DNA of 56,603 bases, filler included, from Nitrospiraceae bacterium (GTDB lineage: Bacteria > Nitrospirota > Nitrospiria > Nitrospirales > UBA2166): NCBI GenBank assembly GCA_002726235.1. It is 3 parts of 3 records of this genome, joined end to end, with 100 filler letters (N's around TTAATTAATTAA, not from the genome) between each part and the next. Parts side by side here need not be neighbours in the genome. Positions count along the whole stretch, not along the records: positions 49,285 to 56,603 come from PBSN01000024.1; 2 more parts are not named here. One strand, written 5' to 3'. Of this stretch, positions 47,415 through 56,579 are shown in pieces; position 1 is the first letter of the stretch; every line of letters begins with the position of its first letter. Position numbers and translations under genes: made by a program. The notes below the pieces were generated by a model. The model did no database searches, was not told the DNA's origin, and saw only the letters and a program-made list of their open reading frames with translations.

Positions 47415-47452
47415 CTGGCAGGAATCGAACCTGCGACAACTGGATTAGAAGT
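47415..47452 (-). repeat. partial duplicate of the tRNA-Arg 3' half (att-like core)
   Basis: 37 of 38 nt match 47657-47694. Confidence 0.85.
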
Positions 47453-47648
47453 TCGGTCCACCCTTGTAACGCCACACTACACCACCCTACGTAAGACTAC
47501 GTAGGATACTCTCAAGTCCTTACCAGCGCACTGTTTCGTTGATTATTGTTGTCTGATGTTGCATGGCGTAGTTCTGGCTAACCGTACCAAAAACCGGACT
47601 CTTGAAGAATTGAAAATTGTGTGAGGTGACGTAAGTGATTGAAATGAT

Positions 47649-47725
47649 TGGCGCGCCTGGCAGGAATCGAACCTGCGACAACCGGATTAGAAGTCCGATG
47701 CTCTATCCTACTGAGCTACAGGCGC
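47649..47725 (-). tRNA. tRNA-Arg(TCT)
   Basis: GCGCCTG/CAGGCGC acceptor stem, TCGGA-CTTCTAA-TCCGG anticodon arm, GTTCGATT, CCA. Confidence 0.96.
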
Positions 47726-49284: not shown

Positions 49285-49952
49285 AATGGAGATTCTAAAG
49301 GTAGAACTTAGAATTCACAAAAATATTAGTGCCATTATTACAAGAACACGTTTCAAAGTACATTTTTTTAATTCGAATTCAAACACAAAAATTTAAATAA
49401 AATTACCCAAAGCAAAACCCCCCCAAAATCCCATAGCATTACTAATATTATTAGTAATGTTAAGCCAAAGGAAAAAGCGAAAAATTATTACTAGAAATAG
49501 TAATATTAACAATGGAGCAAATGAACCGAGATTATTCGGTCGGGTAAGTTGCATGGAATTAAAGGCGGTGTGCGCTTTTTAATAGGATTTTGCGTCAATT
49601 TTTTTTTTTTTTGCACAAATTTTACGTCAATTTTAATTTTAATTCGGAAGGATGTACATTTTGTACACAAAGATTAAGACAAAAACAATAATTTGATTGT
49701 ATTTATTATCTAACTCAAAATTGATTGTAATAAATATCTAACTCAATATTGGAATATAGACAAAAGTAGAAAAGACAAAAGAGTATCGAAGACAAGACAG
49801 AAACACGCGGGAAAGTAAACGCCCGAACGGAAGAAAAGGTTTAATTCAGACAGGAAGTAGTAACTCTACAATAGTGTCCACTATTCTAATCAGACGAGAC
49901 CTGATTAAGTTAGACTGAGTAGAGAATATCGATTAGTTATACCTAATTGATT

Positions 49953-49963
49953 GAAAGGGGGAA
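49953..49963 (+). other. polypurine tract
   Basis: GAAAGGGGGAA immediately before TGTTAG. Confidence 0.65.
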
Positions 49964-50070
49964 TGTTAGAGAGATGATTTCAGTGTGAAAAGGGAAAGAT
50001 TCATGTGTGAATGATATCAAGAAAGTGAGTGTTAAATCATTGAATGTCATGAATGAAATACCCTCTAACA
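49964..50070 (+). repeat. candidate short LTR (107 bp)
   Basis: TGTTAGAG...CTCTAACA 8-bp terminal inverted repeat with TG...CA ends, preceded by the PPT; no second copy in the window. Confidence 0.55.
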
Positions 50071-50699
50071 AGGCAATACTTCCACAAATACTCAATTCCA
50101 ATATACCAAATACCATAGGAATATAGATAACGAATTATCTCTAAATAAGTTATTTGAAATCATTGGTAAGTACAAAGAGTCTAAATGAATGTTACATAAC
50201 ATTCTATATTCCTTAACACCAAAAATACGTTAAATCTATTTATACACATTACACACTATTATTAGTCTTAAAATGCCTTAAAATGCCCTCCCAATATTAA
50301 TAATATTAATATTAAGTCCCAAAATGCCTTAAAACCCTCCCCCTCTTCAGTGTTTAACACTTTCTAGTACAAAATACAAGTAAAATCCTCTAAACCTCAA
50401 GCCTCCTTCAAAATCCCGAAATAGCCTTCAAAATCCAGAAACAAAAATATTTTCCGACCCCCACTGTCAAACCCGAAAAGAACAATTTTTGTTATTACAA
50501 AAATAACAATAATATTTTCTCCGACCCCCACTTTCTCGTCGTAAAGGAACAAAAAGTGTTTAAAGACAAAACACAAAGTATTTTTAAAGACAAAAATACT
50601 ACAGACACAGACAAAAAGTGTTTACAGACAAAACACTCAGACAAAAGACAAATAAACCAGACATTGTGTAATAAAACTAAACAAAACAAAGGTAACACA

Positions 50700-52160
50700 A
50701 TGCCGGAAGGACTGCTAATTCCGGAAGACAATGAATTGCTTGCGGATTTATCCGACATGCAAATACACTTGTTAGCAAGTGTAGAAGAAGTAGCGCACGT
50801 TAACAAAAGTCGTCAGGAAATCATTGAAAAATTGGTAGAAAAATCAAACAGATTTGACGAAAACAGCGAGTTAAGACTACTTCCAGCAACAACCCTCAAA
50901 AACCTAGCAAGCACATTAGGGTTGTCACAGACAGGCAGTAGGGATAGCATAGCAAAAAGAATTGTTCAACAAGCAAAGGATGCAGAAAACAACCAACAAG
51001 AAAACAACAATGAACACCATGCTTATGATCCGTCTACGATGCCAGCAAACAATCCCAGGTCAATAGAGATTATACCTCTAGAAAGCATCCAATCAAAAGT
51101 AAAAGTGGAAAATTGGATACAAGATATCAAAATAACGGCTCAAGTCCGTCAAGTTGAAGGAATCCTAGACAGTTTGTTAGAAAAAGAAATTGATGAACAA
51201 GGAAGACAAATAATCTACCAAGGATTAAATGGTCTTCAAACACAAACGATGCAACTAATCTTGCAAGGAATCAGGAATTCCTTGGGTGAAAGTTTAGCTG
51301 TAACACTATTTTCTGATTTACGCTCGGGTAAATGCAAAAATAGGCGTGAGTGTATCATTGACTGGGCAAGAGGATACACAGGAGACTTAGGAAATGCGAT
51401 TGAAGCTAAAGCAATCAAAAGTTTCCACGAATTAAGTTTCAAACGCTCAAAAACAGACCTTCACTCATGGGTCTCACAACTACGCCAGCATGCCACTGAC
51501 TTTGGCATCACAATTCCAGAAGGAATTGCGCGTGAGTCCATGGTTCGTGAGAAAATTCTCACGAACATAAAAGAAAACGTGAGTGATACAGTAAAATTAA
51601 TATTGAATAGTTTTAGATTGAAAGAATGCGTAGACAAAGGGCGCGAGGTCGATGATCTCGTACAACAGCTATCAAAAGAATTCTTCAAGTTGACAGAGAA
51701 AGGAGAACAACAGTGTCAAGTGTTCTCAGTACAATTTCAAGGTCAAGGTGGTAAAAACTCATTCAATACGTTTTACAATGGTAAAAACAACAGCAATGGT
51801 AAAGGAAAAGGGAAAAAGACATTCCCTGGAAAAGGCAGTAAATGGAATAATACTGGATACAATAGTCAAAATCAAGGTTATCAGAATAATAATAGTAATG
51901 CTGGAGACAAATGGTGCACTAGATGCGCAGCCTTTTATTCTGATAACGGATGGCCAATCAATTACAGATTGGTCCAGTCACACAATCAAGCACAGTGTAG
52001 GATCTCACAGCAGAAAAATGAGAAAAATGCTGGAAACAAACCAAACAAAGGGGGCGGAAAGAACAACACAGTCAAGAAGGATAACCACAAGAAAGGCAAA
52101 GGAGGTGGAAAAGGAAAGGGAAAAGGTAAAGGGAAGAAAGGGGGTGGTAAAAATTCGTGA
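50700..52160 (+). CDS. gag: retrotransposon Gag
   Basis: First ATG at 50700; SAP-like N terminus, CX2CX18HX4C knuckle, G/K-rich tail; precedes pol. Confidence 0.8.
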   Translation: MPEGLLIPEDNELLADLSDMQIHLLASVEEVAHVNKSRQEIIEKLVEKSNRFDENSELRLLPATTLKNLASTLGLSQTGSRDSIAKRIVQQAKDAENNQQENNNEHHAYDPSTMPANNPRSIEIIPLESIQSKVKVENWIQDIKITAQVRQVEGILDSLLEKEIDEQGRQIIYQGLNGLQTQTMQLILQGIRNSLGESLAVTLFSDLRSGKCKNRRECIIDWARGYTGDLGNAIEAKAIKSFHELSFKRSKTDLHSWVSQLRQHATDFGITIPEGIARESMVREKILTNIKENVSDTVKLILNSFRLKECVDKGREVDDLVQQLSKEFFKLTEKGEQQCQVFSVQFQGQGGKNSFNTFYNGKNNSNGKGKGKKTFPGKGSKWNNTGYNSQNQGYQNNNSNAGDKWCTRCAAFYSDNGWPINYRLVQSHNQAQCRISQQKNEKNAGNKPNKGGGKNNTVKKDNHKKGKGGGKGKGKGKGKKGGGKNS

Positions 52161-52226
52161 CTATCTCGCCATCAGTCGCAAACTTCAGGTTACTGGAGTA
52201 ATACAGGAAATACCGATGCGACTGAT
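52158..52226 (+). promoter_or_regulatory. probable stop-codon readthrough signal (UGA-CUA plus 3' stem-loop)
   Basis: Single in-frame TGA; ATCAGTCGCA (52171-52180) pairs with TGCGACTGAT (52217-52226). Confidence 0.75.
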
Positions 52227-55200
52227 CAAGATACAGACGAAAGAAACAATGCTAGCGATGAAGGAACATCATATTACAATGGATACAATGCTCCAATGGG
52301 ATACAATGCAGACAAATGGAGTATTTACGATGATCCTTCTGATAATGATGATCCGATGGATATAGAAGACGTAACTGAGGAAGTAGCTAGCGAAAATATG
52401 GGAGCAAAAGGTATTACTAATAGAAAACTTAAATTAGTTAAAAAGAGAGAAAAGAAATACAAAGGCGTGTATGTGAGAAGTTCAAAATTAAACAAAATGT
52501 CAGAAGAAGAACAAGTGAGAAAAGCAAAAATCAAATTATCAAAAAGACTTCCAGCTCGATCCAGAAGAGCAGTTAGAAGATTAATCCTTTTCTCCAATAC
52601 AGAATCAATAGATTTAAAGAATACTAAACAATGGAAAGACATTTGTTCATTTTATATGAATAACACCAGAAACAAAACAGGAACAAATATAATAGTAGAC
52701 TCAGGAACAGAATATCATATATTCAGAGACAAAGAAAACTTTAAACAAGCATCAAATGAAAAGATACGTATTAAAGGCGTTTCTGGTAGTTCATATGGAT
52801 ACAAAGGAGTACTTAAAAACTCAGTATTAGGAACAAATATTTCAGCAGTGTGGTTTAAACAACTTCCTGTTGAATGTCTTCTCTCGGTAGAACATTTGAA
52901 AAAGAGAGGTTGGGAGACAATGTTCATGTTAAAACATGATTTCATTCGTAATGCAAGAAGTGGAGAAATTCTATACCTAAACAAAGACTCGTCTACGGGC
53001 TTACCAGTGATGAAATTAACTTTCTCGAATGAAATACAAGAAACCCAATCTTATATATGTTCACCTTGCGAAGATTCGTATACAAATATACAAGCCTATA
53101 ATAATCTACCTAAAAGACTAGTAAAATCAAACAACGGCAAACAGACAAAACGGGGAAAAACACAAACGTCAAGGTTACTTCAGCATCAAAGAATGTGCCA
53201 CATGCATGTGGACGGAGTAACAAGAACAAGATGTTTGGATTGTATGGAAAGTAAGGGCAAAAGGGGAGGCGCGAGTAAAGTAAGAGATCCCAAATACCGT
53301 GTCAGAAACCCCCTTATGCTATTTTCAGCCGACTTCTTTGGCAAGGTTACCCCAACCTCCATCAGAAGTAACAAATGGGTTTTATTATTCATATGTGACG
53401 AGTGTAATTTCGCACATGCTGAATGTATACCAAAGAAATCTGATGCGCCGCAAGCCTTAGAAAGATTTACCAAACAAATTAGACAAAAATGCGGTACAGA
53501 CAAAGAAGGTAGAACAATGGCAAAGCAACTAATAGTTGCAGGAATCCACACAGACAATGAACCTGTGTTAACGGGTACGAAGTGGAAGTCAGTGTGCAAT
53601 CAATTAGGGATAACAGAATTGCATTCAGTTCCATATGTTCCTCAAATGAATGGAACAATAGAAAGATTTGTAGGTACCATGAAAGACGCACTAAGAACAA
53701 CATTATTTGGTGTTGATGGTAGAGTGTGGGATTGGGCCTTAGAACATATCATTTCTGTATGGAATATGAAACAACACAGAAAGTGTGCCAAACACAACAA
53801 CAATGAAATATGCGCTCCAAACAAAATACTGTCAAATATAAGTGATAATCCTTTTGAACAAGGAAAAACAGACAAACAAAAATATTTGCGCAGGTTTGGT
53901 TGCTTAGCATTTTTCAAGGCATGCAAAAATCCGAAAGAGATGGAAAAAGAGAGAAACCTCGTCCTCATACCAAAAAGGTTAAGAGGAATACATCTCGGAT
54001 TTTCAAACAAGAATAGTGCTTGGATAATAGGTACTATAAATTACGGTGGATACTTCACAGTCTACGAATCCCGCGATGTTTCATTTTGCGAGGACATCTT
54101 AGTAAATGATGTGAGAGCACTTGATGTAATATCAAATCCAGACCCACCATTCGTTAAAAGTCTCCTGGATAAGCTCAACGTTGTGGCCGAGAAAGGGAAA
54201 TCCGTTGGGGCTGAGACGTCGGTCGTAGGGGAAATGCGAGAAATCGTTCCCGAAAACCAGCCGCAGGGTTCAGTCTTATCTCAGTGGGAAGTGCCGGAAG
54301 TTGAGAAAACAATACCATTAGAGACGGTAGAATTTGATCAGCTGAAGATAGAGGCACGAGGAAATCCTGATAGACAATTAGATAGGAAAATATCTACAAA
54401 ACCTGAAGAGGTGGATTTCCACAATTCTGATTCCGAAGAAGAGATGGCTAAAGCTCAAATAGACATCCTTCTGGAAGAAAATAATACTAAAAGGGCAAAG
54501 GAAAAAGAAAAGAAGACAGACACGAATCAGAATAATGGTGCTATGCAGGTGCCTGAGGTTCAATTTGGACCATCTGCAGAAATCAGGCGTCGGGGTCGAC
54601 CGCGAGGGTCTAAGGACCAAGTTCAGAGGAACAGACGTACGAAAAGACAAATGCGTACAGAAAAATTAAATACAGCACATGCGATGCTCGCGGAGGATGA
54701 TGGAACCCAAGATTTCTATAGTCACTTTGCTTCATGCGAAGAGGACGAAGAAATAGTAGAAGCAGAAGTATTCTTAGCTAAAGTAGGTGTCGAATCAAAA
54801 CCAGGAGACTCCGTAGGAGCAAGCTGGGCATTCTCACCGAACAATCCAGAAAGGCCCAAGTGGATTGAAGCAAAAGACAAAGAACAAGCCAGATTAATGG
54901 CTTATGAGACATGGAGAAAATTAACTCCAGAAGAAGAAAGCGACTGGAAAAACCGTAAAATTAAAGCTGTACCTTGTGCACTGATCTTAAACAGAAAAAG
55001 GTGTGGAAGGTACAAAGCAAGACTAGTCGTTTTAGGCAACCGTTGGGAACCAACGGGAGACAACTGTGTATACGCAAGTGTAGTATCTCAAGTAGGCAAT
55101 AGAGCTACATTAGTTCACGCAGCGAAAAATGGATACCATGTAATCCCATTTGACATAGGCAATGCTTTTATAAGAGCGTCAATGGGCAGTCTAAAAGTTG

Positions 55201-56579
55201 CAGTCACAATACCAGAAACATTCAGAGACAAAGATCCAAAGGATAACGGTAGAAGAATGTTACTAAAAGCATTATACGGTCTTCCAATATCTCCGAGGTT
55301 ATGGGCTAAATGCTTAGGAAAAGATCTTCTTTCTAAGGGTTGGAAAGAATGTATTAATGAACCAGGAGTTTGGAGGAAACTAGACGCAGACAATAAACCA
55401 GTTGGATACTTAACGGTTTATGTAGACGACTGTGTTCTAGCATGCAAAGACAAAGAGACAGCGGAAAAAGAATTACAAATTATACATGATCTGCACCCTT
55501 TATCAGTTATTGAATGTAAAGAAACACCAGACGGTGGAATCAAATTTGATTTAACTGGAGCAGACATAGAATATAATTCAAAACTAAAAACACTCAAAAT
55601 ATCTATGGCGTCCTACATCCGCAAGATGTTAACGACATATGATATGCTAAAAGCAAAGCCTCGTAACACCCCTTCGTTCGAGGAGAAGAATTTGTATGAC
55701 AAATCAAGCAAAGAATGTAATTTTCCGTTTAGAAATGCAGTTGGAGCTCTACAATGGGCAACAACATGTGCAAGACCAGACCTAGCCCATTCTGTAAATA
55801 TGCTCGCTAGAGCAGGTAGTCAGAAATGCACCGTAGCCATGCAGAAATGCGCAAGGTTGGTGTTTAGGTATCTTCTAGGTACAATTGAATGGAGCTTAAA
55901 CTATTCCCCAGAAAGTGAAGAAAAATTCAATACAGAATTTGATAAAATTGCTAGAGACGAAAATGAGAATGCATCAATGAAAGACAAATTAGAACAAATA
56001 AAGGAACCAATCCATTTGTTCACAGATGCATCATTCGGGGTAGAATACAAAGCAATGAAGTCAATCACTGGAATAGTGCTATACCTTCATGGAACTCCAA
56101 TTGCCTGGAGATCCAAAGTACAAAGTATTTTTACCTCTTGTACTACACAAAGTGAATTTGTAGCATTAAGCGATGCAATACAATTCTCTAATACAATATA
56201 TGGTTTACAAAGATTCTTAATAGGAAAACCTGAGACAGACGAGAACTGCGGACCAATCTGGTCAGATAATCGTGGGGCAGTTCTAATTGGCAGAAAAGGA
56301 AATAAAAATAGGGATGAAATCCCTAAACGTTCTAGACACGTTGCATTGAAATATTCGGAGGTATTAAACCACTCAGAAAGACTATTCTGGGTACCTACCG
56401 AAAATCAACGTGCAGACGGGTTGACAAAATCCCTCAATAAAGAGGCTCTGAGGATGATCATGAACAACCCAAAGACAAAAGATTTTGCAGAGGCTGACGA
56501 AGAAGAAGAAGAGACCTTCTTCTCAGCACTCAGTATGTGCGCAAAACTTGAATGGTTAACATGTGAGAAGACCCGTTAA
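52161..56579 (+). CDS. pol: Ty1/copia Pol polyprotein (protease, integrase, RT, RNase H)
   Basis: IVDSGT protease; HQRMCH..CLDC, ADFFG, HTDNE, NGTIER integrase; RRGRPRGS AT-hook; FDIGNAF, ALYGL, YVDD RT; TDASF, SEF, SDN, ADGLTK RNase H; frame is open from the gag stop onward. Confidence 0.95.
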   Translation, partial: LSRHQSQTSGYWSNTGNTDATDQDTDERNNASDEGTSYYNGYNAPMGYNADKWSIYDDPSDNDDPMDIEDVTEEVASENMGAKGITNRKLKLVKKREKKYKGVYVRSSKLNKMSEEEQVRKAKIKLSKRLPARSRRAVRRLILFSNTESIDLKNTKQWKDICSFYMNNTRNKTGTNIIVDSGTEYHIFRDKENFKQASNEKIRIKGVSGSSYGYKGVLKNSVLGTNISAVWFKQLPVECLLSVEHLKKRGWETMFMLKHDFIRNARSGEILYLNKDSSTGLPVMKLTFSNEIQETQSYICSPCEDSYTNIQAYNNLPKRLVKSNNGKQTKRGKTQTSRLLQHQRMCHMHVDGVTRTRCLDCMESKGKRGGASKVRDPKYRVRNPLMLFSADFFGKVTPTSIRSNKWVLLFICDECNFAHAECIPKKSDAPQALERFTKQIRQKCGTDKEGRTMAKQLIVAGIHTDNEPVLTGTKWKSVCNQLGITELHSVPYVPQMNGTIERFVGTMKDALRTTLFGVDGRVWDWALEHIISVWNMKQHRKCAKHNNNEICAPNKILSNISDNPFEQGKTDKQKYLRRFGCLAFFKACKNPKEMEKERNLVLIPKRLRGIHLGFSNKNSAWIIGTINYGGYFTVYESRDVSFCEDILVNDVRALDVISNPDPPFVKSLLDKLNVVAEKGKSVGAETSVVGEMREIVPENQPQGSVLSQWEVPEVEKTIPLETVEFDQLKIEARGNPDRQLDRKISTKPEEVDFHNSDSEEEMAKAQIDILLEENNTKRAKEKEKKTDTNQNNGAMQVPEVQFGPSAEIRRRGRPRGSKDQVQRNRRTKRQMRTEKLNTAHAMLAEDDGTQDFYSHFASCEEDEEIVEAEVFLAKVGVESKPGDSVGASWAFSPNNPERPKWIEAKDKEQARLMAYETWRKLTPEEESDWKNRKIKAVPCALILNRKRCGRYKARLVVLGNRWEPTGDNCVYASVVSQVGNRATLVHAAKNGYHVIPFDIGNAFIRASMGSLKVAVTIPETFRDKDPKDNGRRMLLKALYGLPISPRLWAKCLGKDLLSKGWKECINEPGVWRKLDADNKPVGYLTVYVDDCVLACKDKETAEKELQIIHDLHPLSVIECKETPDGGIKFDLTGADIEYNSKLKTLKISMASYIRKMLTTYDMLKAKPRNTPSFEEKNLYDKSSKECNFPFRNAVGALQWATTCARPDLAHSVNMLARAGSQKCTVAMQKCARLVFRYLLGTIEWSLNYSPESEEKFNTEFDKIARDENENASMKDKLEQIKEPIHLFTDASFGVEYKAMKSITGIVLYLHGTPIAWRSKVQSIFTSCTTQSEFVALSDAIQFSNTIYGLQRFLIGKPETDENCGPIWSDNRGAVLIGRKGNKNRDEIPKRSRHVALKYSEVLNHSERLFWVPTENQRADGLTKSLNKEALRMIMNNPKTKDFAEADEEEEETFFSALSMCAKLEWLTCEKTR

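Follow-up and report, generated by a model that had tools for sequence, protein, structure and literature searches.

Readthrough of a stop codon between gag and pol is textbook knowledge for the gammaretroviruses. Among copia-type elements it has been documented in very few, and the studied case, Tca2, is mechanistically unsettled; a literature search on copia gag readthrough and in-frame stop codons returned Tca2 as the only studied copia case. Here we describe a Ty1/copia-type long terminal repeat (LTR) retrotransposon of a marine eukaryote, found at the end of a 56,603-nucleotide stretch of DNA (hereafter the window) filed under the Nitrospiraceae bacterium assembly GCA_002726235.1. One UGA ends its gag and separates it from an in-frame pol, and programmed readthrough of this stop is the probable source of the Gag-Pol protein. 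The mechanism itself is already known, and what is added here is a deep, environmentally widespread lineage of marine copia elements that conserves the in-frame stop, the reading frame, and the CUA codon after the stop and that offers natural variants of that context.

Tca2 (pCal) of Candida albicans, also a Ty1/copia element, resembles the window element in having gag and pol in the zero frame, one UGA between them, and a predicted 3′ RNA structure (PMC2194720). The signals differ. In Tca2, the spacer is rich in purines and 8 nt long and leads to a putative pseudoknot, as in murine leukemia virus (MuLV), whereas the window has UGA-CUA, a pyrimidine-rich 10-nt spacer, and a forked stem-loop for which no pseudoknot pairing was found. 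In addition, the stop is conserved over a deep lineage here, as against a single species for Tca2. The Ty3/gypsy elements Tj1, Tcry1, and Tosmo1-3 of fission yeasts are described as having, like the window, an in-frame TGA between gag and pol followed by CTA or CTG (PMC10085805). This TGA is conserved across diverged elements and was read there as programmed readthrough, and the stop of Tj1 is reported to be essential for transposition (PMC10085805). These elements have the order protease, reverse transcriptase, RNase H, and integrase and live in fungal hosts, whereas the window element is of copia type and comes from marine plankton. The conserved GAA-TGA-CT of the Tj1 type is matched in part: TGA-CT is present, but the codon before the stop is TCG in the window and variable among its relatives.

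Diatom CoDi copia lineages and the copia reverse transcriptases of marine metagenomes are, like the window element, copia-type elements of marine protists, and Maumus et al. noted copia elements of diatoms whose gag and pol are separated by one stop (PMC2806351). The preliminary description of this locus had named Tca2 as a rare stop-separated copia element. Tca2 did prove to be the sole studied copia case returned, but the arrangement is less rare than that wording implied, given these diatom elements (PMC2806351) and the fission-yeast Ty3/gypsy elements with GAA-TGA-CT (PMC10085805).

Among viruses, two signals offer a comparison. UGA-CUA or UGA-CGG defines type II readthrough, often accompanied by a stem after an 8- to 12-nt spacer, and the alphavirus nsP3-nsP4 junction is of this kind, with UGA-CUA (Sindbis, O'nyong-nyong) or UGA-CGG and a 10- to 12-bp stem after 8 to 12 nt (PMC3159437, PMC13517186). 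The window is alike in all of these respects. However, the alphavirus stems are reported to enclose 100 to 150 nt and to be backed by synonymous-site conservation and compensatory changes, while the stem in the window encloses 36 nt and lacks comparative support. The likeness is one of analogous signals and not of homology. MuLV (type III) is, like the window element, a retroelement that makes Gag-Pol through an in-frame gag stop, and its described signal joins UAG-G to a compact H-type pseudoknot across a purine-rich 8-nt spacer (PMC13517186, PMC3159437). All three are missing from the window, where a UGA stop is followed by C, the spacer CTATCTCGCC is rich in pyrimidines, and a crude search gave no convincing pseudoknot.

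The gag-pol junction in the window and its relatives

The element lies on the plus strand of the last of the three contigs that make up the window. Its anatomy is observed directly, apart from the proposed role of the stop and the predicted fold:

49285-50699, plus strand: 5′ part of the element, a partial 5′ LTR and an untranslated leader (the contig starts at 49285)
50700-52157, plus strand: gag, 486 codons from the ATG at 50700, an open reading frame (ORF) whose tail ends in KNS
52158-52160, plus strand: in-frame UGA ending gag, the proposed readthrough codon and the sole in-frame TGA
52161-52163, plus strand: CUA codon directly 3′ of the stop, as read in the sequence
52161-56576, plus strand: pol, 1472 codons in the gag frame, closed by TAA at 56577-56579 and recognized from its ORF and Pfam domains
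52171-52226, plus strand: forked stem-loop from fold prediction, a 10-bp stem with an inner 7-bp hairpin

The gag-pol frame of 1960 codons contains one TGA and no TAA or TAG; its two off-frames have 139 and 158 stops. The 135 nt from the stop to the first pol ATG (52161-52295, with the ATG at 52296) hold no in-frame stop. This confirms the preliminary description, which had reported gag and pol in one frame, an open stretch of 135 nt, and a lone TGA in about 1950 codons. Pol begins with a linker upstream of the protease, whose DSGT motif is at pol codon 180 (nt 52698-52709), and continues with an integrase at about codons 389-513 (Pfam rve/rve_3), an SH3-like domain (SH3_retrovirus) at codons 568-646, an RVT_2 reverse transcriptase at codons 936-1172 (nt 54966-55676; E value 4.9e-16, above the curated cut-off), and RNase H next to it. 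The order protease, integrase, reverse transcriptase, and RNase H, with a reverse transcriptase of the RVT_2 type, is that of Ty1/copia. It is plausible that the element represents a new copia lineage, as proposed earlier.

Scanning metagenome contigs with a Pol alignment identified 14 loci whose Pol is 36 to 54% identical. The gag-pol junction is present in ten of them and missing from L004, L006, L008, and L009; it is also missing from L016, the one fragment that the same alignment found in genome contigs. Searches with a single Pol protein in metagenome contigs, with a five-sequence Gag alignment in genome contigs, and with the Pol alignment in viral contigs returned no loci, and a protein atlas search gave only leads below 0.9. 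In nine of the ten relatives that hold the junction, gag and pol are in one frame and a single stop is found at the same Gag end. The stop is TGA in eight (L002, L003, L005, L007, L010, L011, L013, and L014) and TAG in L012. All 496 codons between the Gag-end stop and the first in-frame ATG, summed over the window and these nine relatives, are open, with a chance of about 1e-17 at the off-frame stop density, and this argues that the linker is translated from upstream. TGA closes nine of ten gag genes compared with three of 11 pol genes (Fisher p = 0.0075). Since three pol genes do end in TGA, it is a true stop in these hosts.

Protein records give the same picture of a Gag that ends where it does in the window. 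A profile search of a protein library assembled a Gag family of 75 representatives, none of which runs on into Pol. All 45 Gag matches that reach profile position 476 or later end no more than 33 residues after the match (hand count), and three long Gag-family matches have Gag at their C-terminus. Gag relatives of 25 to 33% identity all terminate at the same Lys/Gly tail, all 34 aligned database Gag proteins terminate just past it, and the near-identical Gag variants P0001 and P0008 terminate at KNS as well. Likewise, the 15 Pol relatives measure 1028 to 1697 aa, and none is as large as a Gag-Pol, in a search that was open to lengths of up to 2576 aa. Two relatives, L010 and L011, are full-length elements with LTRs that are 99.5% identical (206 bp in L010 and 603 bp in L011), start with TG, and are flanked by 5-bp target duplications read by eye. 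Both carry TGA-CTA, and the identity of their LTRs indicates that elements with the Gag-end stop transposed recently.

These comparisons support the Gag-end stop as a lineage-wide conserved feature and not a nonsense mutation. A nonsense mutation or an assembly error in a dead copy is hardly credible as the origin of the TGA. It could appeal to the single assembled copy in the window and to a contig that is incomplete and has no 3′ LTR, but the same stop position recurs in nine of ten distant relatives and in all database Gag proteins, including P0001 and P0008, which end at the same residue, and the 1472 pol codons are intact. The pol differences between the window and its copies agree with this, as judged from the 40 of 127 differences listed, to which all counts of differences given here refer: 16 are synonymous and four non-synonymous. 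Pol is under purifying selection. In gag, three of the listed differences are synonymous and nine non-synonymous. The preliminary description had counted the position of the stop, exactly at the end of Gag, as an argument against a random nonsense mutation, and the relatives bear this out. As for TGA in further copies, the junction is spanned by contigs from the runs X1, X2, and X3, with no listed difference in 51901-52282; this support, at the level of contigs, is thin.

A variant nuclear code in the host, under which UGA would be sense and gag-pol one ORF, is highly improbable as well. Stop codons have been reassigned in some marine protists, and this is the ground on which such a code could be proposed. 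However, the 1960 codons include a single TGA, placed precisely where Gag ends, against 32 TGG and 41 TGT plus TGC codons; three relatives end pol with TGA; and the position of the stop is kept across elements with a GC content of 0.37 to 0.53, which are probably from different hosts.

The codon behind the stop is conserved in its own right. The window reads TGA CTA at 52158-52163, the UGA-CUA context claimed for it earlier and the type II form, and CTA proves to be the usual codon after TGA in the lineage: it follows six of nine TGA junctions (the window, L007, L010, L011, L013, and L014), i.e., five of the eight TGA relatives. CTA makes up 0.2 to 1.9% of all codons and 3 to 22% of Leu codons in these elements, and the chance of finding it in all six is about 6e-6, assuming selection for Leu alone and saturated sites. 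Apart from that Leu, the amino acids downstream of the stop differ between elements. In a Pol tree of ten rows, with L015 left out, the window groups with L002, which has TGG, and stands outside the clade to which the five remaining CTA elements belong. Given the rarity of CTA, its occurrence in two parts of the tree, and the unlike downstream residues, selection appears to act on the nucleotides. The TAG relative, L012, reads TAG-CAG-CTA, which fits the CAR-YYA motif described for tobamoviruses (PMC3159437).

Probable readthrough and the possible separate expression of pol

Programmed readthrough with a type II context is well supported by the conservation of stop, frame, and CUA among relatives, young full-length copies included. 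In the mechanism that we propose, most ribosomes would terminate at the UGA and release Gag, with its predicted capsid fold, extended zinc knuckle, and basic Lys/Gly tail. A minority would decode the UGA by a near-cognate tRNA and continue in frame through the variable linker into the protease, integrase, reverse transcriptase, and RNase H, so that rare readthrough would set a low ratio of Gag-Pol to Gag. The conserved part of the signal would be the UGA stop plus the 3′ CUA, as in alphaviruses, some plant viruses, and cellular genes. In this element, further stimulation may come from the stem-loop 10 nt past the stop, much as from alphavirus 3′ stems, and this is the weakest step of the scheme. 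Gene callers split such elements into two proteins, and the annotation should be Gag and Gag-Pol.

Several observations count against this mechanism. Three TGA relatives have a different codon after the stop (TGA-TGG in L002, TGA-CAA in L003, and TGA-AAG). In L015, the most distant of the relatives, the Gag end is free of stops; a TAA (1970-1972) stands upstream of the zinc knuckle instead, and the frame is open from the Lys/Gly tail into pol. This single case may be one in which the recoding site has moved, or it may be a broken single-ORF copy. L012 is probably defective, with an extra in-frame TAG inside pol (1604-1606) at a conserved Ser position, besides its gag end at 164-166. The read support for the TGA is thin, since X1 could be the sample of origin and X2 and X3 appear to be a single data set under two entries. 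The UGA context and predicted pseudoknot of Tca2 were reported to be insufficient for readthrough in Saccharomyces cerevisiae, and the junction was reported to hold a minor internal promoter (PMC2194720). A convincing-looking context can therefore fail, and a plausible, conserved 3′ structure can be functionally irrelevant. Finally, we infer the occurrence of readthrough in the window element, its level, and any role of the stem from sequence alone.

In an alternative account, the stop is real and conserved and Pol would be produced separately, from another or a processed RNA (by an internal promoter or splicing) or by reinitiation at a downstream ATG. Every element has an in-frame ATG 6 to 181 codons past the stop, and this ATG lies upstream of the protease motif in eight of ten elements, including the window (the motif was not found in L007 and L010). 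Besides the minor promoter and the inactive local context at the Tca2 junction, Drosophila copia is described as regulating Gag and Gag-Pol through two RNAs (PMC2194720). Independent initiation, however, requires neither a common frame nor an open linker, and both are seen in the nine relatives and the window. It also leaves unexplained why TGA is preferred at gag ends and not at pol ends, and why the CTA codon is there. We regard separate expression of pol as unlikely. Public runs that contain the contig offered no further view of the transcripts, as none of those listed was an RNA data set with the element.

RNA structure downstream of the stop

The preliminary description had also drawn attention to a 10-nt spacer, a perfect stem, and an inner hairpin behind the stop, and all of these are present. 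The spacer CTATCTCGCC is followed by ATCAGTCGCA (52171-52180), which pairs perfectly with TGCGACTGAT (52217-52226), and the stem encloses ACTTCAG-GTTA-CTGGAGT (52182-52199), a hairpin of seven pairs with one G-U. The structure begins 10 nt past the stop, at +14 with the U of UGA as +1, and is thereby within the 8- to 12-nt spacing of type II signals, a match that concerns presence only. An 83-nt fold has a free energy of -25.3 kcal/mol (z = -4.2), with none of 200 shuffles as good, and a 103-nt fold has z = -3.0, with one of 200 shuffles as good. In a helix test, which takes the best helix whose 5′ arm starts 5 to 14 nt downstream of a given position, one of 185 control positions in the element was as good as the junction.

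Other comparisons call for caution about a role for the stem. Ranked by minimum free energy (MFE) against windows of the same element, the junction is less striking, at 4.2% for 90 nt and 9% for 103 nt; windows of 60 nt cannot contain the stem and are uninformative. Four distinct perfect inverted repeats with arms of 10 bp or more and loops of up to 60 nt occur in the element, against 0.5 expected under a Markov model, and local stems of this length are about tenfold enriched over that model. Such stems are thus not peculiar to the junction, and of the three others, two lie inside gag (51543-51570, with a 10-bp stem and a 4-nt loop, and 51877-51950, with 13-bp arms about 45 nt apart). The nine relatives revealed no shared or enriched 3′ structure in an in-element rank test (Fisher-combined p = 0.83). 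In the helix test, six of the nine score no better than their own background. Of the five UGA-CUA relatives, four (L010, L011, L013, and L014) have less structure there than is average for the element concerned, L007 being the exception. Against shuffled sequences, z is -2.5 or lower in four of the nine (L002, L003, L007, and L012) and about -1.8 to +1.1 in the rest. The outliers of the helix test are L012 (2.3%) and L003 (5.6%), which have 9- to 10-bp helices after 8- to 9-nt spacers.

Comparative support for individual base pairs is hard to obtain in this material. Even the nearest relative with DNA has a Pol of about 50% identity, too distant for nucleotide alignment, and the copies that are about 99% identical have no listed change in the stem and are uninformative on covariation. 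An Rfam scan found no match at the junction (its single match, E value 0.84, is elsewhere). The crude search for a pseudoknot partner of the loop gave a best candidate of 7 nt that overlaps the inner hairpin arm and is more than 60 nt away, and nothing convincing emerged.

We therefore weigh two accounts of the stem separately from readthrough itself. That it is no part of the signal is somewhat the likelier account: the stem-loop at 52171-52226 would be a chance structure or one otherwise used (in packaging, in dimerization, or as a by-product of coding), and UGA-CUA alone would set the level of readthrough. The lack of a common structure in the relatives, the low structure of most UGA-CUA relatives, the other perfect stems in the element, and the conserved Tca2 pseudoknot reported to have no stimulatory effect (PMC2194720) favor it, whereas the 10-nt spacer, which matches the 8 to 12 nt of known stimulators (PMC3159437), the rarity of an equally good helix at control positions, the shuffle z values of -3.0 to -4.2, and the helices of L012 and L003 argue the other way. 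That the stem-loop stimulates readthrough in the window element is accordingly doubtful, though not far-fetched. Of the structured readthrough element proposed in the preliminary description, a present and well-placed stem stands; it was found in the window element only, and the nine relatives do not share a 3′ structure.

The mixture of contexts and structures among the relatives admits a more speculative thought, which we consider rather unlikely: that this widespread marine-plankton copia lineage may have kept gag-pol readthrough over deep time while swapping the stimulatory signal. Most members would then rely on UGA-CUA with an unstructured 3′ region, L003 (TGA-CAA) and L012 (TAG-CAG-CTA) on another context with a stem 8 to 9 nt downstream, and the window element would have both; the hallmarks of the lineage would be the C-X2-C-X18-H-X4-C knuckle and the Lys/Gly tail of a Gag outside all Pfam families. 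If true, the lineage would be a natural series for the trade-off between context and RNA structure in eukaryotic readthrough.

Gag protein, element ends, and source of the contig

The Gag of the window matched no family in Pfam, and the whole Gag family is likewise without a Pfam model. Its zinc knuckle, C-X2-C-X18-H-X4-C, occupies residues 406-433 (51915-51998), and C406, C409, H428, and C433 are invariant in 35 sequences. The usual spacing of such a knuckle is C-X2-C-X4-H-X4-C. The C-terminus is a Lys/Gly-rich tail ending in KNS. An AlphaFold model (mean pLDDT 78) places a capsid fold at about residues 120-334, and in a wide VIA-align search the top structural match of residues 121-334 was the copia capsid of Drosophila (8vvw_A; Z 8.3, no more than a middling value for helical proteins; root mean square deviation 5.6; 181 of 184 residues aligned). 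It is followed by PNMA2, the Ty1 capsid C-terminal domain (CA-CTD), dArc1, PEG10, and the capsids of RSV and MLV, and the first 24 VIA-align rows are all retroelement or retroelement-derived capsids. Foldseek of Gag against PDB gave no match at an E value of 0.001 or below. The model thus points to a retroelement capsid fold. Relative to the window, the gag copies of X2, X3, and X4 and the protein P0001 have a 27-nt in-frame insertion at 50985, which adds nine Asn/Gln-rich residues.

The contig ends 24 nt past pol, and the 3′ LTR is outside it. At the 5′ side, the sequence at 49884-49903 weakly resembles a motif found directly after the 5′ LTR of L010 and L011, and the 5′ LTR of the window element tentatively ends near 49883. 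An LTR boundary at a contig break near 49694 was considered and rejected, since the unmatched letters there are homologous with indels. The motif itself (TTCTA..CAG..CC..AGAGCCT) is shared between L010 8054-8093 and L011 8125-8166 and does not start with TGG. A tRNA primer-binding site usually begins with TGG, and the motif suggests an unusual primer for L010, L011, and the window element, perhaps an internal tRNA fragment or self-priming. ORFs flanking L010 and L011 matched no Pfam family. L014 (2-1804, 2576-7105) holds two related elements head to tail, the pol end of one followed by gag-TGA-pol of the other, and the ends of its contig are 92% identical over 201 nt.

The window joins contigs C14 (1-22889), C15 (22990-49184), and C24 (49285-56603) with N-TTAATTAATTAA-N spacers, and the source assembly is a prokaryote bin of 1.87 Mb in 27 contigs. 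C24, which is present in full (7319 nt), has a GC content of 0.372, compared with 0.48 to 0.53 in 23 of the 26 other contigs (bin about 0.49), and carries the eukaryote-type LTR retrotransposon and no other genes. That C24 came into the prokaryote assembly from a eukaryote by mis-binning is almost certain, because a eukaryote-type LTR retrotransposon is all that it encodes and its GC content is an outlier too. C24 occurs in public runs of marine or seawater metagenomes and also in one from a hydrothermal vent. L016 (1767 nt) is a pol fragment of the same lineage inside another prokaryote metagenome-assembled genome (MAG), a record titled Acidimicrobiales MAG, so eukaryotic passengers recur in marine bins, and bins of this kind need decontamination (C24 and L016).

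The same bin has a second composition outlier, contig C26 (L017 1-12803), which has a GC content of 0.255, is densely coding and prokaryote-like, and is probably from a different organism. Its proteins include HD-domain, VIT1, Polysacc_synt_2, and exo/endonuclease-phosphatase members and a 1328-aa ORF that matched no Pfam family. Two repeats were seen on C15. The 41-nt stretches 47415-47455 and 47657-47697, 242 nt apart, are 95% identical; ARAGORN found no tRNA at the first, and the second falls within a tRNA-Arg(TCT) gene on the minus strand. At the end of C15 (49079-49184), three 33-nt tandem repeats, 98 to 100% identical, reach the end of the contig.

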